From a virus (taxonomy: Duplodnaviria; Heunggongvirae; Uroviricota; Caudoviricetes): a DNA stretch of 36,024 nucleotides. Of this stretch, positions 1 through 24,868 are shown in pieces (the first letter of the stretch is position 1; each line of letters begins with the position of its first letter). The stretch lies in the IMG/VR virus record IMGVR_UViG_2778261396_000003; one strand, given 5' to 3'. The translations under genes were made by a program, and so were the position numbers. The notes below the pieces were generated by a model. The model saw nothing but the letters and a program-made list of their open reading frames with translations. It was not told the origin of the DNA and made no database searches.

Positions 1-1032
1 TCAAAAACTTGCTATTGATGTTGGTAGTGTTGCCAGCGGATTAAACCGTAATGCAGTTTCCAGGTGATCCGGTGCCAGATGTGCGTAACGCATAGTCATT
101 TTTATGTCGTGATGTCCGAGGATTTTTTGCAAAGCAAGGATATTTCCACCCGACATCATAAAATGCGCCGCAAACGTATGGCGCAGAACGTGTGTCAGTT
201 GACCGCGAGGGAGCACGATAGACGTTTTTTCCATCACGGATAAAAATTGAAAATAGCAGTCTGTGAAGAAATTGAACCCATCAAGCGCCATGATCTCTTC
301 GTAAAGCTCTTTACTGATAGGGATGCTTCTGTTTTTCTTCCCCTTCGTTCTTACAAAGGTAATTCGGTATTTGGTCACCTGTGAGCGGGTAAGATTTACG
401 GCTTCACGCCAGCGTGCGCCTGTGCTTAAGCATATCTTAACTACCAGTGCCAGAATTGGGTCCTGACGTTTGCAATCAGCCAGCAATTCAACAATCTGCT
501 CATGGGTAAGCCATGCCATCTCTTTTTCTGCGATGGTGAATTTTCGCATGTTCTCCAGTGGGTTCGGATACGACCATTCGCCCAGACGGGATAGTTCGCT
601 AAAAACACTACTTAGATAGCTTTGCTCCAGGTTAATGGTGACCGGGCTTGCTCCTTTCTTCCATTTCTCGCTGAAGTAGATCTCGCCTGTCAGGCGTTTA
701 TCTCGATAGTGGGCAAACATTTTAGAGGTGAGATCGGTTGCAAGAGGATTGCCCAGAGCGTCAACCATCAACAGCAATTTGTCATAGACATGCTGCCCAG
801 CTGTCAGAGATTTACCATGTAGTTTGAACCATAGCTCAACCACGTCTTTCAGTGTTCGACGATCCACTGATTCACCCAGCCAGGGCTTTGCTTCGGTTTC
901 TTCCATCGTGTGGCGCTCAAAAGCCAGTGCTTCGCCTTTGGTAGCGAATTGTTTACGCACACGACGCCCACTTCGTCCGGCGGGGTAACATTCGCAAAGC
1001 CATTTCCCTGTGGTTAGTTTTCGTACTGCCAT
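1..1032 (-). CDS. int: Tyrosine integrase (phage integrase family), 343 aa
   Basis: C-terminal catalytic region HVLRHTFAAHF...ILALQKILGHHDIKMTMRYAHL (R/H-x-x-R...Y pattern); positioned at the prophage edge as in P2/186. Confidence 0.9.
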   Translation of the reverse strand: MAVRKLTTGKWLCECYPAGRSGRRVRKQFATKGEALAFERHTMEETEAKPWLGESVDRRTLKDVVELWFKLHGKSLTAGQHVYDKLLLMVDALGNPLATDLTSKMFAHYRDKRLTGEIYFSEKWKKGASPVTINLEQSYLSSVFSELSRLGEWSYPNPLENMRKFTIAEKEMAWLTHEQIVELLADCKRQDPILALVVKICLSTGARWREAVNLTRSQVTKYRITFVRTKGKKNRSIPISKELYEEIMALDGFNFFTDCYFQFLSVMEKTSIVLPRGQLTHVLRHTFAAHFMMSGGNILALQKILGHHDIKMTMRYAHLAPDHLETALRFNPLATLPTSIASF

Positions 1033-1114: not shown

Positions 1115-2791
1115 CTAAGCAACATGTAGTTCATCGTTGGCGGAAGTGGCTGCTTTGCGCTCCTGCTCAATAGCTAGAGACTCTCTATATTCTTTCGCCT
1201 CTGCAAACATTGTCCAGTGGGCGTTGATGTTCATGTCTTCAATAACTGATTTGATTTCTTTTAAATTTACGTTAAAAAACTCTTTTCGTGAGTTAATTTT
1301 ATTGACCTGCTTTTCGTTGAAAACTTTATGCAGATGGTTTTCTAATGATGGTGCATCATCACTATAAATCATCGCATGAACATCGAACGAAAAAGGAACA
1401 CTAGCATCTCCGAGTTCACGAACACGATCAAGTGGTTCAAGGCGGCGTGTCATTCCAATTTTATATACATCTTCGCCAAATGAACCAATATTACTAATGA
1501 TATAGACGTGGCCTGATCTGGTTTGTTGAGCCATAGAAATAGCTCGTTGATTTTTAGCTTCAGCTTCTTCATATTTTAACTGTAGTTCAGCTATTTTTTG
1601 CTCTAAAGCTAAGCGTTGTTCTTCATTTGCAAGCATAAGTTCTTTCGTTGCTTTATTTATAGCTTGCTGAATAGCTTTTTCTTCTTTTTCAGCTTCTTTT
1701 ATCGCTTTTTCATATTCTCTACGAGCTCTTTCCTCTTCACGAAGCTGTTCTTTAATCCTTCTTTGCTCTTCTTTTTCTTCGAGCATAATTTCATTAACTG
1801 CTACACCCCATTTTAGCTCGTTGAGTCTTGCCTGAAGATAGATGTCACTTATTTTTGCGGACCTAAAGGCAGAGCCATTGTAATTTACTAGTTGAAATGC
1901 ATCTTTTATTTCTTGGGAAAGTTTTCCAAAATTGTTGTGTTTGACTTTTGATAAAATACTGTCAACTCTTCCATTGAAGGCATCCAAAACAAAGTTTATG
2001 GCAGTATTACGCCTCTTTTGCTCAACATAATCACACGAAGCAGCTTTATTAGTTTTTATTAATGATTTGGTTAACTCTCTGGCTTTTTGTAATTCCTTGC
2101 CTGCATCTGTAAATTCATAATTTTCTGCCAGCTCATCAAGTACACTACGGTTAGGGATGATCCATTCATCACCATAACCTTCAATTTTATTTTTCATTGA
2201 TTTTGCAACTGCTTCATATTTTTCTGCAAACTCTTTAGCTTCATATGCTGAACCAGCAATCTCCTTTGCTCTTTCTTCTGCATCAGAAATAATTTTTACT
2301 GCATTGTCATTAGCATTTGAGATTAGCTCATTTGCTTTATTATTAGCATTATCAAGACGTTCTTTGGCTTTCAGGCGTGCATCGCGAGCGTCTTTGGTGA
2401 TTGCTATAGCTTCGCTATTAGCGTTGCTTATTGTCATCTGAGCTTGATAATTTGCTTCGTTTACTGTTTTAGCCGCCTTAATTTGGGCTTCATCTATTTT
2501 TTGCTTGGCTATTGAGTCCGCATTTTTTATCTTATTCTCTGCATCCATTACTGCGCTGTGCAATTCTTCGTATTGCCACAATGGTGCTGCTCGCCCTTCA
2601 AGCTCTGATAATTCTCGTACGGTCTGTGCTAGTTTTTCTTGATTTTCAATCAGTTGGTTAGAAAGGGCTATGTTGTTAGCTGTCAGGTTATCTATAGCCG
2701 CTTTGTGTTTTTTACTTTGTTTAAATAATATTACAGCTAGAACAGGGGCGAGAAATGCTAATAAGAGTATAACGATGGCAAATGAATTCAT
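1115..2791 (-). CDS. Membrane-anchored coiled-coil protein with DUF4041-like middle region and C-terminal T5orf172/GIY-YIG-like domain (558 aa); candidate prophage-encoded exclusion/defence protein
   Basis: N-terminal hydrophobic segment FAIVILLLAFLAPVLAVILF; long A/K/E/N-rich heptad-like region; C-terminal HVYIISNIGSFGEDVYKIGMTRRLEPLDRVRELG...PFSFDVHAMIYS resembles GIY-YIG/T5orf172. Sampled GC ~33% against ~50% in core genes; only 20 bp from cI stop, same strand. Confidence 0.7.
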   Translation of the reverse strand: MNSFAIVILLLAFLAPVLAVILFKQSKKHKAAIDNLTANNIALSNQLIENQEKLAQTVRELSELEGRAAPLWQYEELHSAVMDAENKIKNADSIAKQKIDEAQIKAAKTVNEANYQAQMTISNANSEAIAITKDARDARLKAKERLDNANNKANELISNANDNAVKIISDAEERAKEIAGSAYEAKEFAEKYEAVAKSMKNKIEGYGDEWIIPNRSVLDELAENYEFTDAGKELQKARELTKSLIKTNKAASCDYVEQKRRNTAINFVLDAFNGRVDSILSKVKHNNFGKLSQEIKDAFQLVNYNGSAFRSAKISDIYLQARLNELKWGVAVNEIMLEEKEEQRRIKEQLREEERARREYEKAIKEAEKEEKAIQQAINKATKELMLANEEQRLALEQKIAELQLKYEEAEAKNQRAISMAQQTRSGHVYIISNIGSFGEDVYKIGMTRRLEPLDRVRELGDASVPFSFDVHAMIYSDDAPSLENHLHKVFNEKQVNKINSRKEFFNVNLKEIKSVIEDMNINAHWTMFAEAKEYRESLAIEQERKAATSANDELHVA

Positions 2792-2811: not shown

Positions 2812-3408
2812 TTAATTCGAGACTATTGTACTTCTTATACAAGCAACCACTTCAATATCAGAAAATGCACATTCAAAGCTATTCTCTGCTGTTGTAATTT
2901 TAATCATTCCTTTAGGAAGCCTTGTGATTTTTCGAATGGAATAGGTTCCGTCGATATTGATTAACCAGTTTCCATCAAGTACTTCAGAAAATTTTTGATC
3001 ACAAATGTATGTGACGAGTCCATCCTGAACAACAATTGGTGATGAAAGGTTTGCAGGAAGAAATGATGAATCGAAGACATATGAACCGTCTTCAATCATT
3101 TTGCCAGCGGCAAGGCGAAACTTAACAAGCTCTTCTGTAGCTGCTGTCAGCGAGCTTTGCTTAAGGCCTTGTCCGGTAGTTAACCATTTGAGGGAGGTTC
3201 CTGTTTCAAGAGCACATTGGATTATCCAGTCAGCAGGAAATGTATCCCGCAAATACCTGTTCGCTAGTGTGCTTTTTGATACTTCCAAGTGATCAGCTAA
3301 AGCCTGTCGTGTCGTAAAGCCATAGGCTTCGACTAATCGCTCAATCGCAGCCTTACCACCTTTATTGGGATTTATTTTGATCTCACTTGGGTACTTTGAT
3401 GTTGACAT
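2812..3408 (-). CDS. cI: Phage 186-type CI immunity repressor (198 aa)
   Basis: HTH-like segment EAYGFTTRQALADHLEVSKSTLANRY, then CALETG..LKWLTTGQG and DGNWLINIDG motifs recalled from 186 CI; divergent from the early operon. Confidence 0.8.
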   Translation of the reverse strand: MSTSKYPSEIKINPNKGGKAAIERLVEAYGFTTRQALADHLEVSKSTLANRYLRDTFPADWIIQCALETGTSLKWLTTGQGLKQSSLTAATEELVKFRLAAGKMIEDGSYVFDSSFLPANLSSPIVVQDGLVTYICDQKFSEVLDGNWLINIDGTYSIRKITRLPKGMIKITTAENSFECAFSDIEVVACIRSTIVSN

Positions 3409-5558: not shown

Positions 5559-6412
5559 GCACCATCCTGAAATGGGCGGGAAATAAAACCGCCATTATGC
5601 CAGAACTGAAAAAATACCTTCCTGCTGGCCCGCGACTGGTTGAACCTTTCGCGGGTTCCTGTGCTGTGATGATGGAAACGGATTATCCCAGCTATCTGGT
5701 TGCGGATATTAATCCTGATTTAATCAACCTCTATAAAAAGGTTGCCGCTGATTGTGAATCGTTTATATCTCGCGCCAGAGTTTTATTTGAGATCGCAAAC
5801 AGGGAGGTGGCTTATTACAACATAAGGCAGGAGTTTAACTGCTCAACTGAAATTACTGATTTCATGAAAGCGGTATATTTCCTGTATCTCAATCGTCACG
5901 GTTACCGTGGTTTATGTCGCTATAACAAGAGCGGGCATTTCAACATTCCCTACGGTAATTATAAAAATCCGTATTTCCCTGAAAAAGAACTTCGCACATT
6001 TGCAGAAAAAGCCCAGCGAGCAACGTTTATCTGCGCCAGCTTTGATGAAACGCTGGCGATGTTGAAGGCGGGAGATGTGGTGTATTGCGATCCGCCATAT
6101 GACGGTACGTTTTCCGGCTATCACACTGATGGTTTCACTGAAGATGACCAGTATCACCTGGCATCCGTTCTTGAACATCGGTCATCAGAAGGACATCCGG
6201 TCATTGTTTCTAACAGTGACACATCCCTGATCCGTTCGCTGTATCGCAATTTTACTCACCACTATATCAAGGTAAAACGCAGCATCGGTGTGGCAGCTGG
6301 CGAGGGTAAATCAGCAACAGAAATCATTGCTGTTTCCGGGCCGCGCTGCTGGATGGGATTTGATTATTCGCGTGGCGTGGATAGTTCTGCCGTGTACGGA
6401 GTACGTGCATGA
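5555..6412 (+). CDS. dam: Dam-type N6-adenine DNA methyltransferase, 285 aa
   Basis: N-terminal LKWAGNK, FAGSCAV (AdoMet motif) and catalytic DPPY; ATG 5555 preceded by GGAGGTG; stop overlaps A start. Confidence 0.85.
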
Positions 6413-8823
6413 GTCATGCCGATATGAACAACTGCTGCGGCTTTAACGAGGCTGCCGCAGCATTCTCATGGAACAGCCCGAAAAAGGCCATTAACCCTTA
6501 TCTGGACCCGGCGGAAGTTGCGCCGGTTTCTACGCTTTCAAACCTGATCACTCTGTACGCTGCCGATAACGAGCAGGAACAGTTGCGCCGCGAGGCACTG
6601 AGTGATCAGGTCTGGGAGCGTTATTTCTTTAATGAATCACGTGATCCTGTCCAGCGCGAAATGGAGCAGGATAAGCTCATTAGCCGGGCAAAGCTGGCGC
6701 ATGAGCAGCAGCGTTTTAATTCAGACATGGTCATTCTGGCGGACGTCAACGCCCAGCCTTCCCATATCAGCAAGCCGCTGATGCAACGTATTGAATACTT
6801 CAGCAGCCTGGGCAGGCCAAAGGCTTATTCCCGCTATTTACGTGAGACGATTAAGCCATGTCTGGAACGACTGGAGCATGTACGCGACAGTCAGCTATCT
6901 GCATCTTTTCGCTTTATGGCAAGCCATGAAGGGCTGGACGGCCTGCTGATCCTGCCTGAAATGAGTCAGGATCAGGTGAAACGCCTGTCCACCCTGGTAG
7001 CTGCGCATATGAGTATGTGCCTTGATGCAGCTTGTGGTGATTTGTATGCCACCGATGACGTTAAGCCAGAAGAAATCCGCAAGACATGGGAAAAGGTGGC
7101 AGCGGAAACCCTGCGTCTGGATGTCATCCCACCTGCGTTTGAGCAACTCCGTCGGAAAAGAAACCGCCGTAAACCCGTGCCCTATGAACTCATTCCGGGT
7201 TCGCTGGCGCGTATGTTGTGCGCCGACTGGTGGTATCGGAAATTATGGAAGATGCGTTGCGAATGGCGGGAAGAGCAGTTGCGCGCTGTTTGCCTGGTCA
7301 GCAAAAAAGCATCTCCTTATGTCAGCTATGAAGCCGTGATGCATAAACGTGAGCAGCGCCGTAAGTCGCTGGAGTTTTTCCGTTCTCATGAACTGGTGAA
7401 CGAAGACGGCGACACGCTGGACATGGAGGATGTGGTAAACGCCAGCAGCAGCAACCCTGCGCATCGCCGCAATGAGATGATGGCCTGTGTTAAAGGTCTG
7501 GAGCTTATCGCGGAAATGCGCGGTGACTGCGCCGTTTTTTACACTATCACCTGTCCGTCGCGTTTCCATTCCACGCTAAATAACGGCAGACCAAACCCGA
7601 CCTGGACAAACGCGACGGTAAGACAAAGCAGCGATTATCTGGTCGGCATGTTTGCTGCATTTCGTAAGGCGATGCACAAAGCCGGGTTGCGCTGGTATGG
7701 CGTGCGGGTGGCTGAGCCGCATCATGACGGCACAGTTCACTGGCACCTGTTGTGTTTCATGCGCAAAAAAGACCGCCGTGCCATTACTGCATTACTGCGT
7801 AAGTTTGCCATCCGTGAAGACCGCGAGGAGCTGGGCAATAACACTGGGCCGCGCTTTAAGTCTGAGTTGATTAACCCGCGCAAAGGAACGCCGACAAGCT
7901 ACATCGCGAAATATATCAGTAAGAACATTGACGGTCGTGGTCTGGCTGGCGAGATCAGCAAGGAAACGGGTAAATCTCTGCGTGATAACGCTGAATACGT
8001 GAATGCCTGGGCGTCTCTGCATCGTGTTCAGCAATTCCGCTTCTTTGGTATTCCGGGGCGTCAGGCTTATCGTGAACTTCGCTTGCTGGCTGGTCAGGCG
8101 GCAAGGCAACAGGGTGACAAAAAAGCAGGTGCGCCGGTACTGGATAACCCGCGTCTTGATGCCATTCTGGCTGCTGCTGATGCTGGCTGTTTTGCCACCT
8201 ACATCATGAAGCAGGGCGGCGTGCTGGTTCCCCGCAAATATCACCTTATCAGAACAGCTTATGAAATTAACGAAGAGCCGACCGCCTATGGCGATCACGG
8301 TATTCGTATTTATGGCATCTGGTCACCCATTGCAGAGGGCAAGATCTGCACTCATGCCGTGAAGTGGAAAATGGTTCGTAAGGCCGTTGACGTTCAGGAG
8401 GCGGCAGCCGACCAGGGCGCTTGCGCCCCTTGGACTCGTGGCAATAACTGTCCCCTTGCTGAAAATTTGTACCAACAAGGGAAAGACAAATCAGCTGATG
8501 GGGATACCAGAACGGATATCACCCGCATGGATGACAAGGAGTTGCACGATTACCTGCACTGTATGAACAAAAAAGAGCGCCGGGAACTGGCAGCAAGATT
8601 ACGCCTGGTTAAACCGAAACGGCGTAAAGACTACAAACAGCGAATTACAGAGCATCAGCGTCAGCAGCTCGTCTATGAACTGAAGTCCAGAGGATTTGAT
8701 GGCAGCGAGAAAGAGGTCGATTTGCTCCTTCGCGGTGGCAGTATTCCGTCAGGAGCAGGCCTGCGTATCTTCTATCGGAACCAGCGTTTGCAGGAAGATG
8801 ATAAGTGGCGGAACCTGTATTAA
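6409..8823 (+). CDS. A: P2 gpA-type rolling-circle replication initiator (HUH endonuclease), 804 aa
   Basis: HUH motif [10 protein letters not shown] and paired-tyrosine motif [13 protein letters not shown]; size and position as P2 A. Confidence 0.9.
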
Positions 8824-8915
8824 TTACGCGGGTTAACAATTCGTGCTCTTAATAATACCAGGCATATCAGGCTGATGAACGTAAAAAAACGTTTTACATC
8901 AGTAAGATTATTATA

Positions 8916-8935
8916 TACTGTAAATATAAACAGTG
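8916..8935 (+). promoter_or_regulatory. LexA (SOS) box TACTGTAAATATAAACAGTG
   Basis: Matches CTGT-N8-ACAG exactly, with AT-rich spacer and flanking TA/TG as in consensus TACTGT(AT)4ACAGTA; lies just upstream of a two-gene module. Confidence 0.65.
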
Positions 8936-8976
8936 TTTATGAATACAGTATTGCTTGTGGTGTCATAGGAGGAAAG

Positions 8977-9165
8977 ATGCAGGACTATTTTTTGGAGTCT
9001 TTGAAGCTCCAGCGCATTGATTTTTTTCTTAAGCTTGTAGCGGCTAGTGAGTGTAGTGATGAAGAGAAGGGGCTGGCTCTGCAGTGGGTTTCTGAATTGA
9101 CAGATGAACTCATGGCAAAAATCAGAAGCCACGAATACAACCGCTCAATGGATGTCATCAACTGA
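8977..9165 (+). CDS. Small SOS-controlled protein (62 aa), possible Tum-like antirepressor component
   Basis: ATG 8977 preceded by AGGAGG; sits between LexA box and DinI-like gene. The ORF-track start at 8875 would place the LexA box inside the ORF. Confidence 0.45.
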   Translation: MQDYFLESLKLQRIDFFLKLVAASECSDEEKGLALQWVSELTDELMAKIRSHEYNRSMDVIN

Positions 9166-9175
9166 GGTGACTTTT

Positions 9176-9409
9176 ATGCGCATTGAAATAATGATCGATA
9201 AAGAGCAGAAGATTAGCCAGTCTATCCTGGACGCCCTTGAATCCGAGCTTTACCGCAATCTGCGCCCCCTGTATCCCAAAACGGTAATTCGTATCCGCAA
9301 AGGTAGCTCTAACGGTGTGGAACTGACCGGACTGCAACTGGACGAAGAAAGAAAACAAGTGATGAAAATTATGCAGAAGGTGTGGGAAGACGACAGCTGG
9401 CTGCATTAA
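9176..9409 (+). CDS. DinI-family protein (77 aa)
   Basis: MRIEIMIDK...ILDALESELYRNL...EERKQVMKIMQKVWEDDSW aligns by eye to E. coli DinI (MRIEVTIAK...IDALAGELSRRI...KQRISEILQETWESADDWF); ATG preceded by GAGGTGA. Confidence 0.7.
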   Translation: MRIEIMIDKEQKISQSILDALESELYRNLRPLYPKTVIRIRKGSSNGVELTGLQLDEERKQVMKIMQKVWEDDSWLH

Positions 9410-9612
9410 GAAACGTTGCTGGCGTCTGAACTTGCTTCTGGCGTCAGCAAGGTTGAACAACGAGCTGTGCGAGGCGTTAGCTCTGTGGTGCATGTCTATG
9501 CCGCATGAGATCGCATGATCGTTTGAGGATCGTTTTTGCTAAGGCCTGCCAGAACTGGCGGGCTTTTGCGTAGATCATGCAGGTGCATGAAAACCACTAC
9601 ATAAAGCGGGCA

Positions 9613-9631
9613 GGCGTGGCGGGGATACGAG
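9613..9631. other. Candidate cos (cohesive-end) site GGCGTGGCGGGGATACGAG
   Basis: First 13 nt match the 186 cohesive end as I recall it (GGCGTGGCGGGGAAAGCAT); located between the replication region and Q, where P2/186 cos lies. Confidence 0.4.
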
Positions 9632-9749
9632 CGCGCGCTGTGCTGTGTGGTATAGGCCTTAATTTAGTATGATTCAATAGTGTCGGGAGCTTTGCGCTGA
9701 TCAGTCCTAAGTTATATGATAAGAAAAATGCATAAAAAAGGTTCGGTTC

Positions 9750-10724
9750 ATGGGGTTAGGATTAAAAGACGCTATTGTGCATACCGCTGCGTTTCATCAA
9801 AAGGAAACTAATGAATTGCAATTGCCAAACAATCATTGGCATCCTGGTTTTATCACTGTCTTAGCAGCTTACGTGAATCATCACAAAATTACCGAAGATA
9901 ACTGTGTTTTGTCATGCCCTGGCTATATGCGAGCTATCAATTTACATGGTGCTTTATGGGGAGAGGATCAGTATCAACAGGAACGTGTAAATGTTGGAAG
10001 AAATTACAGTTTGGTTACAGCATTAACCAATGTTGAAGCTGTTGACGTTGCCACTGGTAGTATTAACAGTTGTGTAAGGCAGTTAACATTCCCTGATCGT
10101 GATCCGAGAGATTGTCCCAAGGGACTTACAGATCTAACCCATGTTATAGGTGAGCTTCACGATAACGTTTGGTCGCATGGAAAATCAACGGGTTTTTCTT
10201 TTGCACAACGTTCGGCTGTACCCCACACTCAAAAAAAAGAGCACTATTTAGAATTTTCTTTGGCGGACTGTGGGTTAGGATTTCTCCGAGAATTGCGGCG
10301 AGCTGGTATACCCGGAATTGAGACTCACCAGGATGCGATCGCATGGTGTATTCAAGAGGGACATTCATCTAAGCATGCTGATTTGCAGGATGATTGGGCA
10401 CAGCAGCTTCCCCAGGACTTTATTGGGGGTAGTGTGTTTGGCCACGGGGTTTCGGTCAAAGAAAAAGATAATAATCATCAAGGGCTTGGGTTGTATCACT
10501 TGATGAAATTGATAAAAACATATAACGGGGAATTGCAACTGGCTTCAGGAAATGTATGCTTAGAAGCAATAGGTGATGAAGTGAGCTATACTGAATTACG
10601 TACTGAATGGCCGGGTGTAGCAATTTCTTGCCGTTTTAAGATTCATGAACTGGCAGTCGATAAAGATAGCGAAGAAAATGACCCTCAGCTTATGGAAATA
10701 ATGCGGGCGTTAGGAGGAGAGTAA
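9750..10724 (+). CDS. GHKL/Bergerat-fold ATPase (histidine-kinase-like ATP-binding domain) with ~130-aa unique N-terminal region, 324 aa
   Basis: N-box-like ELHDNVWSH, G1-like DCGLG, G2-like GLGLYHL, read from the translation; sampled GC ~37%; stop overlaps next start (TAATG). Confidence 0.75.
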   Translation: MGLGLKDAIVHTAAFHQKETNELQLPNNHWHPGFITVLAAYVNHHKITEDNCVLSCPGYMRAINLHGALWGEDQYQQERVNVGRNYSLVTALTNVEAVDVATGSINSCVRQLTFPDRDPRDCPKGLTDLTHVIGELHDNVWSHGKSTGFSFAQRSAVPHTQKKEHYLEFSLADCGLGFLRELRRAGIPGIETHQDAIAWCIQEGHSSKHADLQDDWAQQLPQDFIGGSVFGHGVSVKEKDNNHQGLGLYHLMKLIKTYNGELQLASGNVCLEAIGDEVSYTELRTEWPGVAISCRFKIHELAVDKDSEENDPQLMEIMRALGGE

Positions 10725-11062
10725 TGAACAAAATCGCATACAAGTTACCCGAGGGTGACCTGGCTTCGCGCAATCAGGCTATCCCCCAACGACACAAGAT
10801 TGAAGGGTTCATTAAAGAAGGGTATACCGTAGATTTAGATCTGAGCGGTGTTTATTCAATTTCAGAATCATACTCTGATGAAATCTTTGGTGTTTTGGTA
10901 GTGAAATTCGGTGTAACCAAAGTTTTGAGTCAAGTTAAGGTTCGCAATGCACCCCCTTCAATTTTAAAAAGTATTGCAAAAGTGATCCAACGCCGTAGTA
11001 ATGAAGTAGCATCAAAAAAGGTTCATTCCGTTGGATTTGATGGTTTATACGCCGTTTGTTAA
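10724..11062 (+). CDS. Small protein (112 aa), tentatively STAS-like (DUF4325-type)
   Basis: Translationally coupled to the upstream ATPase; size and predicted alternation of hydrophobic strands consistent with a STAS-type fold, but the domain call is from memory only. Confidence 0.65.
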   Translation: MNKIAYKLPEGDLASRNQAIPQRHKIEGFIKEGYTVDLDLSGVYSISESYSDEIFGVLVVKFGVTKVLSQVKVRNAPPSILKSIAKVIQRRSNEVASKKVHSVGFDGLYAVC

Positions 11063-24456: not shown

Positions 24457-24868
24457 GCCATTCAATATCTGGAGCACTGGAAATATCAACCATTTCCAGT
24501 GCGTCCAGATAATCAAGCCATGAATTATATTGCGCCAGTTCCTCACCTTTCAGACGACCAATAGCAGCCTTTCCTGGCCACTGCTTACTGTTAATATATT
24601 CATTAACTCGATTTATGAGTGCCTGTTTTTTTCGTTCCGCTTCTGACAGTTGTTCTTCATGAGTTAGCGGCGGTACGTCATCCCATGCAGGATAGCCATC
24701 ATCACCCGCAACTCTCACCTTCCCTGGAGGTGAGGACAGGTACTTAATAAATATATCCTCATCAACTTCAACTCCATTATGAGGCCATAACCCAGACTCC
24801 TTATACTGACTTTCCAGAGTAAATGGGTAAAACATATTAGTTTTAGCATCGTAAAGATATTTACTCAT
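24428..24868 (-). CDS. Alternative tail fibre assembly chaperone (G'), 146 aa
   Basis: ATG at 24868 (minus strand) preceded by AGGAAG; convergent and overlapping G by 29 nt; follows the alternative H C-terminal exon. Confidence 0.7.
   Translation of the reverse strand: MSKYLYDAKTNMFYPFTLESQYKESGLWPHNGVEVDEDIFIKYLSSPPGKVRVAGDDGYPAWDDVPPLTHEEQLSEAERKKQALINRVNEYINSKQWPGKAAIGRLKGEELAQYNSWLDYLDALEMVDISSAPDIEWPTPPAVQAR

Follow-up and report, generated by a model that had tools for sequence, protein, structure and literature searches.

The two short genes directly 3' of the replication gene A in this prophage can be read, with a probability of about 0.86, as the SOS operon of a Fels-2-like prophage of the 186 type (Peduoviridae), in which the tum gene is present in split form. 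The stretch of DNA that was analyzed, referred to here as the window, is a 36,024-nucleotide segment of an E. coli chromosome and contains a complete-looking P2/186-like prophage (Peduoviridae, Fels-2-like). Its genes are arranged in the order int (1-1032, minus strand), a cargo gene, cI, an apl-like gene and cII, followed by the replication gene A (6409-8823), the SOS module, further cargo, the portal and terminase genes, and the late genes. The same gene order is found in prophage DuoHS of E. coli HS. The module is in the same place as tum in 186, so the original prediction, which put it near the position of that gene, was correct on this point. The features of the module, its flanks and the repressor gene are as follows.

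2812-3408, minus strand: cI, 186-type immunity repressor by its Pfam domains, the presumed target of TumA
8893-8898, plus strand: -35 hexamer TTTACA of a predicted p95-like SOS promoter, read from the sequence by analogy to 186 p95
8916-8921, plus strand: predicted -10 hexamer TACTGT, formed by the left half of LexA box 1 and arranged like the annotated -10 in 186 p95
8916-8935, no strand: LexA box 1, TACTGTAAATATAAACAGTG, PWM score 24.0 bits, conserved in relatives
8931-8950, no strand: LexA box 2 (putative), CAGTGTTTATGAATACAGTA, weaker, PWM score 15.5 bits, adjoining box 1
8967-8972, plus strand: ribosome binding site (RBS) AGGAGG of ORF1, from the sequence
8977-9165, plus strand: ORF1, tumA-like gene, 62 aa, homologous to the N-terminal half of 186 Tum
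9154-9171, plus strand: small hairpin GTCATCAACTGAGGTGAC across the tumA stop codon and the tumB RBS, from a terminator scan
9164-9169, plus strand: RBS GAGGTG of ORF2, from the sequence
9176-9409, plus strand: ORF2, tumB-like gene, 77 aa, DinI-family protein, by Pfam DinI and the C-terminal half of Tum
9412-9454, plus strand: strong stem-loop directly after the tumB stop codon, without a T-run, from RNA folding
9543-9567, plus strand: terminator-like G+C-rich hairpin followed by TTTT, from RNA folding

The original prediction described a LexA box (CTGT-N8-ACAG) upstream of two short tandem genes with good ribosome binding sites, and all of these elements were recovered in the analysis. TACTGTAAATATAAACAGTG was the only CTGT-N8-ACAG in the 36-kb window. 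The 16-mer core alone is not rare, with 0.66 expected per window, so the full 20-mer was scored with an approximate PWM derived from E. coli LexA operators. Motif scoring had been proposed as a check and supported the box: its 24.0 bits compared with a maximum of 19.8 bits in 200 first-order Markov-shuffled windows, and the sites used to train the matrix scored 13.1-27.2 bits. Box 1 was identical in Fels-2, in DuoHS and in Escherichia phage vB_EcoM-813R9.

The LexA operator overlaps the promoter directly upstream of ORF1, as it does in the SOS operon of 186-type phages (p95-tum). This p95-like promoter was predicted from its likeness to the annotated layout of 186 p95: the spacer between TTTACA and TACTGT is 17 nt in the window, and the annotated 186 promoter consists of TTCACA, 18 nt, and TACTGT. 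A generic promoter scan missed it, returning a minus-strand consensus match as its sole match, because TACTGT is a poor -10 hexamer in which three of six bases match TATAAT. The location of the -10 inside box 1 and the presence of box 2 are both points absent from the original prediction.

The 16-mer cores of box 1 and box 2 overlap by one base. In colicin operators the two LexA boxes also overlap by one base. Five sites in the window reached the score of box 2, compared with 0.055 expected per 36 kb at that score or better, both figures being from the approximate PWM. The counterparts of box 2 in relatives were CAGTGGTTATATGTACAGTA, CAGTGGTTATACATACAGTA or CAGTGGTTATGCGTACAGTA. In Fels-2, DuoHS and 813R9, CAGTG and TACAGTA were retained and nearly all of the differences were in the central spacer. 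Retention of the half-sites with variation in the spacer is the pattern expected of a real LexA site, and box 2 is considered a putative one. Overlapping double SOS boxes are known in colicin genes (PMC2994835), and by analogy we infer that box 2 may function as the second half of a double, colicin-like LexA operator.

The identity of ORF1 was not evident from pairwise comparison. BLASTP gave no alignment between ORF1 and either 186 Tum or PSP3 TumA, nor between PSP3 TumA and 186 Tum, and a Pfam search with ORF1 returned nothing meaningful. Because pairwise BLASTP was silent, profile comparison was needed. ORF1 was assigned to phrog_698 (E 9.7e-38), and residues 1-70 of 186 Tum also matched phrog_698 (E 5.9e-6, positions 6-44 to 6-44). 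Two further families matched ORF1, namely phrog_8554 (E 1.1e-8), to which the N-terminal half of Tum belongs, and phrog_1993 (E 0.002), to which PSP3 TumA belongs; the PHROG matches between ORF1 and the N-terminal half of Tum were reciprocal. An exhaustive search for relatives of ORF1 yielded 67 clusters at 50% identity, nearly all of about 60-100 aa, and the family had 484 database proteins at E <= 0.01. When an alignment of ORF1 and 27 diverse relatives from this search was compared with 186 Tum using hhalign, residues 3-44 aligned to residues 3-44 with a probability of 94.9% (E 4.5e-8) and an identity of about 19%. The motif C-x6-[IL]-A-L-x-[LW]-[IV]-x-E-[LI] was common to ORF1 and Tum. The direct profile link between ORF1 and PSP3 TumA was weak, consisting of the phrog_1993 match and an hhalign probability of 8.6% (E 0.0039). 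ORF1 was 98.4% identical to STM2728 of Fels-2 and identical at 61 of 62 residues (98%) to ECHS_RS04495, the 'tum' gene of DuoHS. These comparisons indicate that ORF1 is a tumA-like gene, homologous to the N-terminal half of 186 Tum, and that its product is a predicted antirepressor. The predicted structure of ORF1 was a two-helix hairpin (pLDDT 88.5), for which Foldseek found generic helical hairpins alone in the PDB, none at E <= 0.001; therefore, the structure adds nothing on function.

The ORF1 protein is 84-106 aa long in many database entries, with an N-terminal extension from ATG 8875 or a similar start. The 96-aa reading from ATG 8875 was rejected: that codon is upstream of the promoter and LexA box, and does not have the RBS that precedes ATG 8977. 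Because this start precedes the promoter and the operator, the extended entries are probably start-codon miscalls. In many records the antirepressor gene is labeled 'hypothetical protein', and one source calls the ORF1 family 'levan regulatory protein', a name without support here. A literature search for 'tumA/tumB' returned unrelated papers only.

The description of ORF2 as DinI-like was well founded. ORF2 matched the Pfam DinI family (PF06183) over profile positions 1-63 of 63 (E 1.3e-22, 80.4 bits versus a cut-off of 24.2), and matched the structure of E. coli DinI (1GHH) over its full length (E 3.6e-6). It was 41% identical to residues 71-145 of 186 Tum (E 9e-25), 76.6% identical to PSP3 TumB, and 98.7% identical to the Fels-2 DinI-family protein STM2726.1. 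Although ORF2 and E. coli DinI (1GHH; RecA-DinI complex 7YWA) have this full-length alignment in common, ORF2 differs from the host protein in being phage-borne, in being predicted to be co-transcribed with an antirepressor gene, and in being closer to the C-terminal half of Tum. The annotation of 186 also gives the DinI-like part as a separate product of an internal GTG, with a role in modulating SOS induction. The most likely role of TumB is to bind RecA filaments and adjust the SOS signal, and not to inactivate CI.

The suggestion of a split Tum-like antirepressor therefore agrees with where the two proteins fall on Tum, ORF1 by profile on residues 3-44 and ORF2 on residues 71-145. The original prediction had named a lack of similarity of either ORF to Tum as the result that would count against it, and such similarity was found for both, although a BLAST search with ORF1 alone would mislead. 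The tumA stop codon (TGA) is at 9163-9165, there is a 10-nt gap before ORF2, and the two ORFs are in different frames. The halves of Tum are not in one polypeptide here, which is what defines the split form. The 3' arm of the hairpin at 9154-9171 holds the tumB RBS, which suggests that the RBS may be sequestered and that translation of tumB may be coupled to that of tumA.

The 801 bases around the module were 99.9% identical to several E. coli chromosomes and 97-98% identical to vB_EcoM-813R9 and Fels-2. The module was present in 1143 of 5426 complete E. coli genomes, approximately one fifth, with up to 4 copies in some genomes. Twenty-six loci were compared: the window, Fels-2, 813R9, 186, PSP3, DuoHS, and 20 diverse Enterobacterales genomic loci found with a tumA-family pattern. 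In 23 of the 26 loci, including distant ones, a LexA box of at least 20 bits preceded the tumA-like start by 34-61 nt. Among the three without a strong box, one box had lost a base and another locus had no recognizable box. Locus L024 had a truncated tumA gene behind a mutated box. The DinI-like partner had a narrower distribution in the 26 loci, being limited to the Fels-2 group, PSP3, and two Mixta/Pantoea loci, and fused in 186. The remaining tumA-like genes, which included most of the more distant loci, were alone behind the LexA box. Because tumA-like genes are often alone, antirepressor function appears to be independent of the DinI part, which argues that TumA is a self-sufficient antirepressor and that the DinI part is accessory.

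The repressor encoded in the window was of the 186 type, as had been predicted. It contained the Pfam domains Phage_CI_repr (E 8.2e-32) and Phage_CI_C (E 3.5e-27), the same search found no Peptidase_S24 domain, and the protein was 32% identical to 186 CI. Because this CI does not have the S24 autocleavage domain, it is not expected to cleave itself on activated RecA, and an antirepressor would be needed for SOS induction. The window CI was 55% identical to the CI of DuoHS and 41.5% identical to that of Fels-2, with the differences mostly in the C-terminal domain.

TumA and CI were compared in nine related phages for which there was a TumA value. TumA was 87-98% identical among phages whose CI was 39-55% identical to the window CI. 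When CI was split by Pfam domain, the HTH domain was 70-81% identical in phages with near-identical TumA, compared with 44-50% in phages in which TumA was divergent or barely alignable (ESSI2_ev015, 186, and PSP3). The C-terminal domain of CI was 29-42% identical among the phages sharing near-identical TumA (L005-L009 and L031-L034) and 27-42% identical across all phages compared. Conservation of TumA may thus track the HTH domain of CI and not the C-terminal domain, a pattern that is only suggestive, and we infer from it that TumA may contact the DNA-binding (HTH) domain. The C-terminal (oligomerization) domain appears to have been exchanged, or to be evolving much faster than the DNA-binding domain. 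A tentative and rather doubtful extension is that TumA of the Fels-2 group is a broad-range antirepressor that recognizes the conserved HTH domain of CI and not the variable C-terminal domain. In that case, a single TumA made in the SOS response could also induce other Fels-2-like prophages in the same cell that differ in CI, crosstalk of the kind shown for the Gifsy antirepressors, and a double, colicin-like LexA operator would hold the shared trigger very tightly off.

The following sequence of events is proposed for the module. In the lysogen, LexA would occupy the strong box and the adjoining weaker box of an operator that overlaps the -10 of the p95-like promoter. Upon DNA damage RecA would be activated, LexA would cleave itself, and the promoter would fire to produce the tumA-tumB transcript. 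TumA, a predicted helical hairpin of 62 aa, would bind the 186-type CI and block its binding to the operators, and with CI off the operators the lytic promoter would be derepressed and the prophage induced. TumB would correspond to the C-terminal half of Tum as a free-standing DinI homolog. What this analysis establishes is the anatomy of the sequence, the homologies, and the conservation of the LexA box. Other parts of this model are carried over by analogy from near-identical or related phages, namely the need for tumA and for a cleavable LexA from DuoHS and the action of Tum on CI from 186. In 186, Tum is an anti-CI factor expressed from the LexA-regulated p95 (PMC7708051). In E. coli HS, the Phollow study found that deletion of 'tum' (ECHS_RS04495) abolished mitomycin C-induced lysis and virion formation, and lexA(Ind-) likewise abolished mitomycin C induction of DuoHS (PMC12055606). 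ECHS_RS04495 encodes 62 aa and directly precedes the DinI-like gene (ECHS_RS04500). Transfer of the deletion result to the window assumes that TumA acts on the window CI too.

The same evidence bears on how the work is divided between the two proteins. TumA and TumB together cover both halves of Tum (62 and 77 aa versus 146 aa), their genes are 10 nt apart, and the hairpin over the tumA stop codon suggests coupled synthesis, all of which would suit a two-component antirepressor in which the proteins reassemble non-covalently into a Tum-like whole and both are needed against CI. This is considered unlikely, because most of the distant tumA-like genes have a LexA box and no DinI-like neighbor, because 186 itself makes the DinI-like part separately as an annotated modulator, and because the antirepressor activity of PSP3 has been credited to the upstream gene alone (PMC3121763). 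The DuoHS deletion, which removed the 62-aa gene only, demonstrates a need for tumA and is compatible with a need for tumB. There is scarcely any likelihood that the roles are reversed, with the DinI-like ORF2 as the inducing factor and ORF1 as a small, unrelated leader ORF. Pairwise similarity to Tum is confined to ORF2, and a RefSeq-style annotation calls Tum itself 'RecA filament binding protein DinI', but ORF1 belongs to a conserved family of 67 clusters that is linked by profile to the N-terminal half of Tum, deletion of the 98%-identical homolog of ORF1 alone blocks induction of DuoHS, and the annotation of 186 treats its truncated DinI-like product as a modulator and not as an antirepressor.

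A further alternative is that the module is an accessory cassette that modulates the SOS response, tuning RecA for the host, and that the prophage is induced otherwise or not at all. ORF2 is a full-length DinI homolog, DinI-like genes are also found in lambdoid prophages such as Gifsy-2, and the window CI differs considerably from the CI of DuoHS and Fels-2. This alternative is nevertheless very improbable, since a CI without an autocleavage domain needs an antirepressor for SOS induction, ORF1 is a homolog of the N-terminal half of Tum and 98% identical to a gene required for induction, and the HTH domain of CI remains 70-81% identical among phages sharing this TumA. A split-tum SOS operon is the preferred reading, and this identity of the module indicates how the prophage would sense DNA damage and helps to predict the inducibility of a common type of E. 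coli prophage.

The SOS transcript probably ends at the hairpin and TTTT at 9543-9567. A terminator scan placed this hairpin below its T-run threshold; the same sequence is found downstream of STM2726 in Fels-2. The region from 9410 to 9645 is a mosaic, in which 9410-9490 resembles the sequence after PSP3 tumB and 9490-9645 is the sequence downstream of Fels-2 STM2726. Because the latter is equal to the sequence that follows STM2726, the orf97-like gene is missing here. The region folds more stably than shuffled sequences (z = -3.1), and an Rfam search of 8700-9900 matched no RNA family.

Several other sites and genes in the window were noted. A LexA-box-like site, AACTGTATATGTAACCAGTA (1063-1082), scored 23.9 bits with the approximate PWM, as high as the tum box. 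It is intergenic, between the start of int (1032) and the stop of the minus-strand gene at 1115-2791. Read on the minus strand, it falls between the two hexamers of a possible promoter (TTGATT, 17 nt, TTAAAT), and int begins about 30 nt downstream. Next come a hairpin and a T-run, which extend into the int ATG. The site is kept as CACTGGTTATACACACAGTA in Klebsiella phage 4LV2017, in which the flanking DNA is 81% identical and the upstream cargo is different. Integrase expression may be under SOS control via AACTGTATATGTAACCAGTA. Weak LexA-like matches were also found at 10052-10071 (CACTGGTAGTATTAACAGTT, 16.3 bits, in a HATPase-like cargo gene) and at 24586-24605 (TACTGTTAATATATTCATTA, 16.1 bits). 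The gene at 1115-2791 (minus strand), between int and cI, encodes a 558-aa protein identified as the anti-phage defense protein PD-Lambda-1 (PADLOC E 2e-120), with DUF4041 and T5orf172/MUG113 domains, and is annotated as 'chromosome segregation ATPase' in related phage records. Between tumB and the portal gene, at 9750-11062 (plus strand), are two cargo genes overlapping by one base: the first encodes a protein of 324 aa that faintly matches HATPase_c (phrog_3364), and the second a STAS-like DUF4325 protein of 112 aa that weakly matches part of DrmA. No known system was matched by this cargo. Because Fels-2, DuoHS, 813R9 and PSP3 each carry different genes at this position, the interval looks like a variable cargo or defense hotspot.

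The split-tum module is already known, in that its mechanism, its split form and its genetic requirement have all been published. The additions of this analysis are the putative second, weaker LexA box, the solitary tumA-like genes, and the suggestive parallel between conservation of TumA and of the HTH domain of CI. According to Lemire et al. (2011), a stop codon divides tum in Fels-2 and PSP3, and the antirepressor is encoded by the upstream gene; for PSP3 this attribution is second-hand, a personal communication of G.E. Christie via Bunny et al. 2002 (PMC3121763). The closest relatives are Fels-2 of Salmonella Typhimurium LT2 (STM2728 and STM2726.1) and DuoHS (ECHS_RS04495 and ECHS_RS04500), in which the two genes are in the same position after gene A, with box 1, an adjoining box 2 and a 10-nt gap, and encode proteins 98-99% identical to those in the window. 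They differ in the cargo between tumB and the portal gene. In Fels-2 the DinI-like gene is followed by STM2726, an orf97-like gene of 732 nt like orf97 of 186 that is missing in the window, and DuoHS has an unnamed 678-nt gene at the orf97 position.

PSP3 is like the window in having two genes behind a LexA box after gene A, and its annotation describes tumA as 'similar to 5' end 186 tum; UV induction of prophage' and tumB as 'similar to dinI and 3' end of 186 tum'. However, PSP3 TumA belongs to phrog_1993 whereas ORF1 belongs to phrog_698, the two being barely alignable, and the single LexA box of PSP3 precedes the start codon by 40 nt, with a gap of 3 nt between the genes. Phage 186 resembles the window in its LexA-repressed promoter, whose -10 is within the LexA box, in the position of the operon behind gene A and in the type of CI, and Tum has the same N-terminal half and DinI-like C-terminal half as TumA and TumB. 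In contrast to the window, 186 Tum is a single polypeptide of 146 aa with internal starts, and orf97 is downstream. Both 186 and PSP3 have a single LexA box, whereas the window module has two candidate boxes. The Gifsy antirepressors GfoA and GftA and AntC of N15 follow the same logic, in which a small SOS-induced antirepressor inactivates a non-cleavable repressor. The Gifsy operons also contain a dinI homolog, like the window module, but dinI is first in the operon, the reverse of the order seen here, and the repressors are of another family (PMC3121763).
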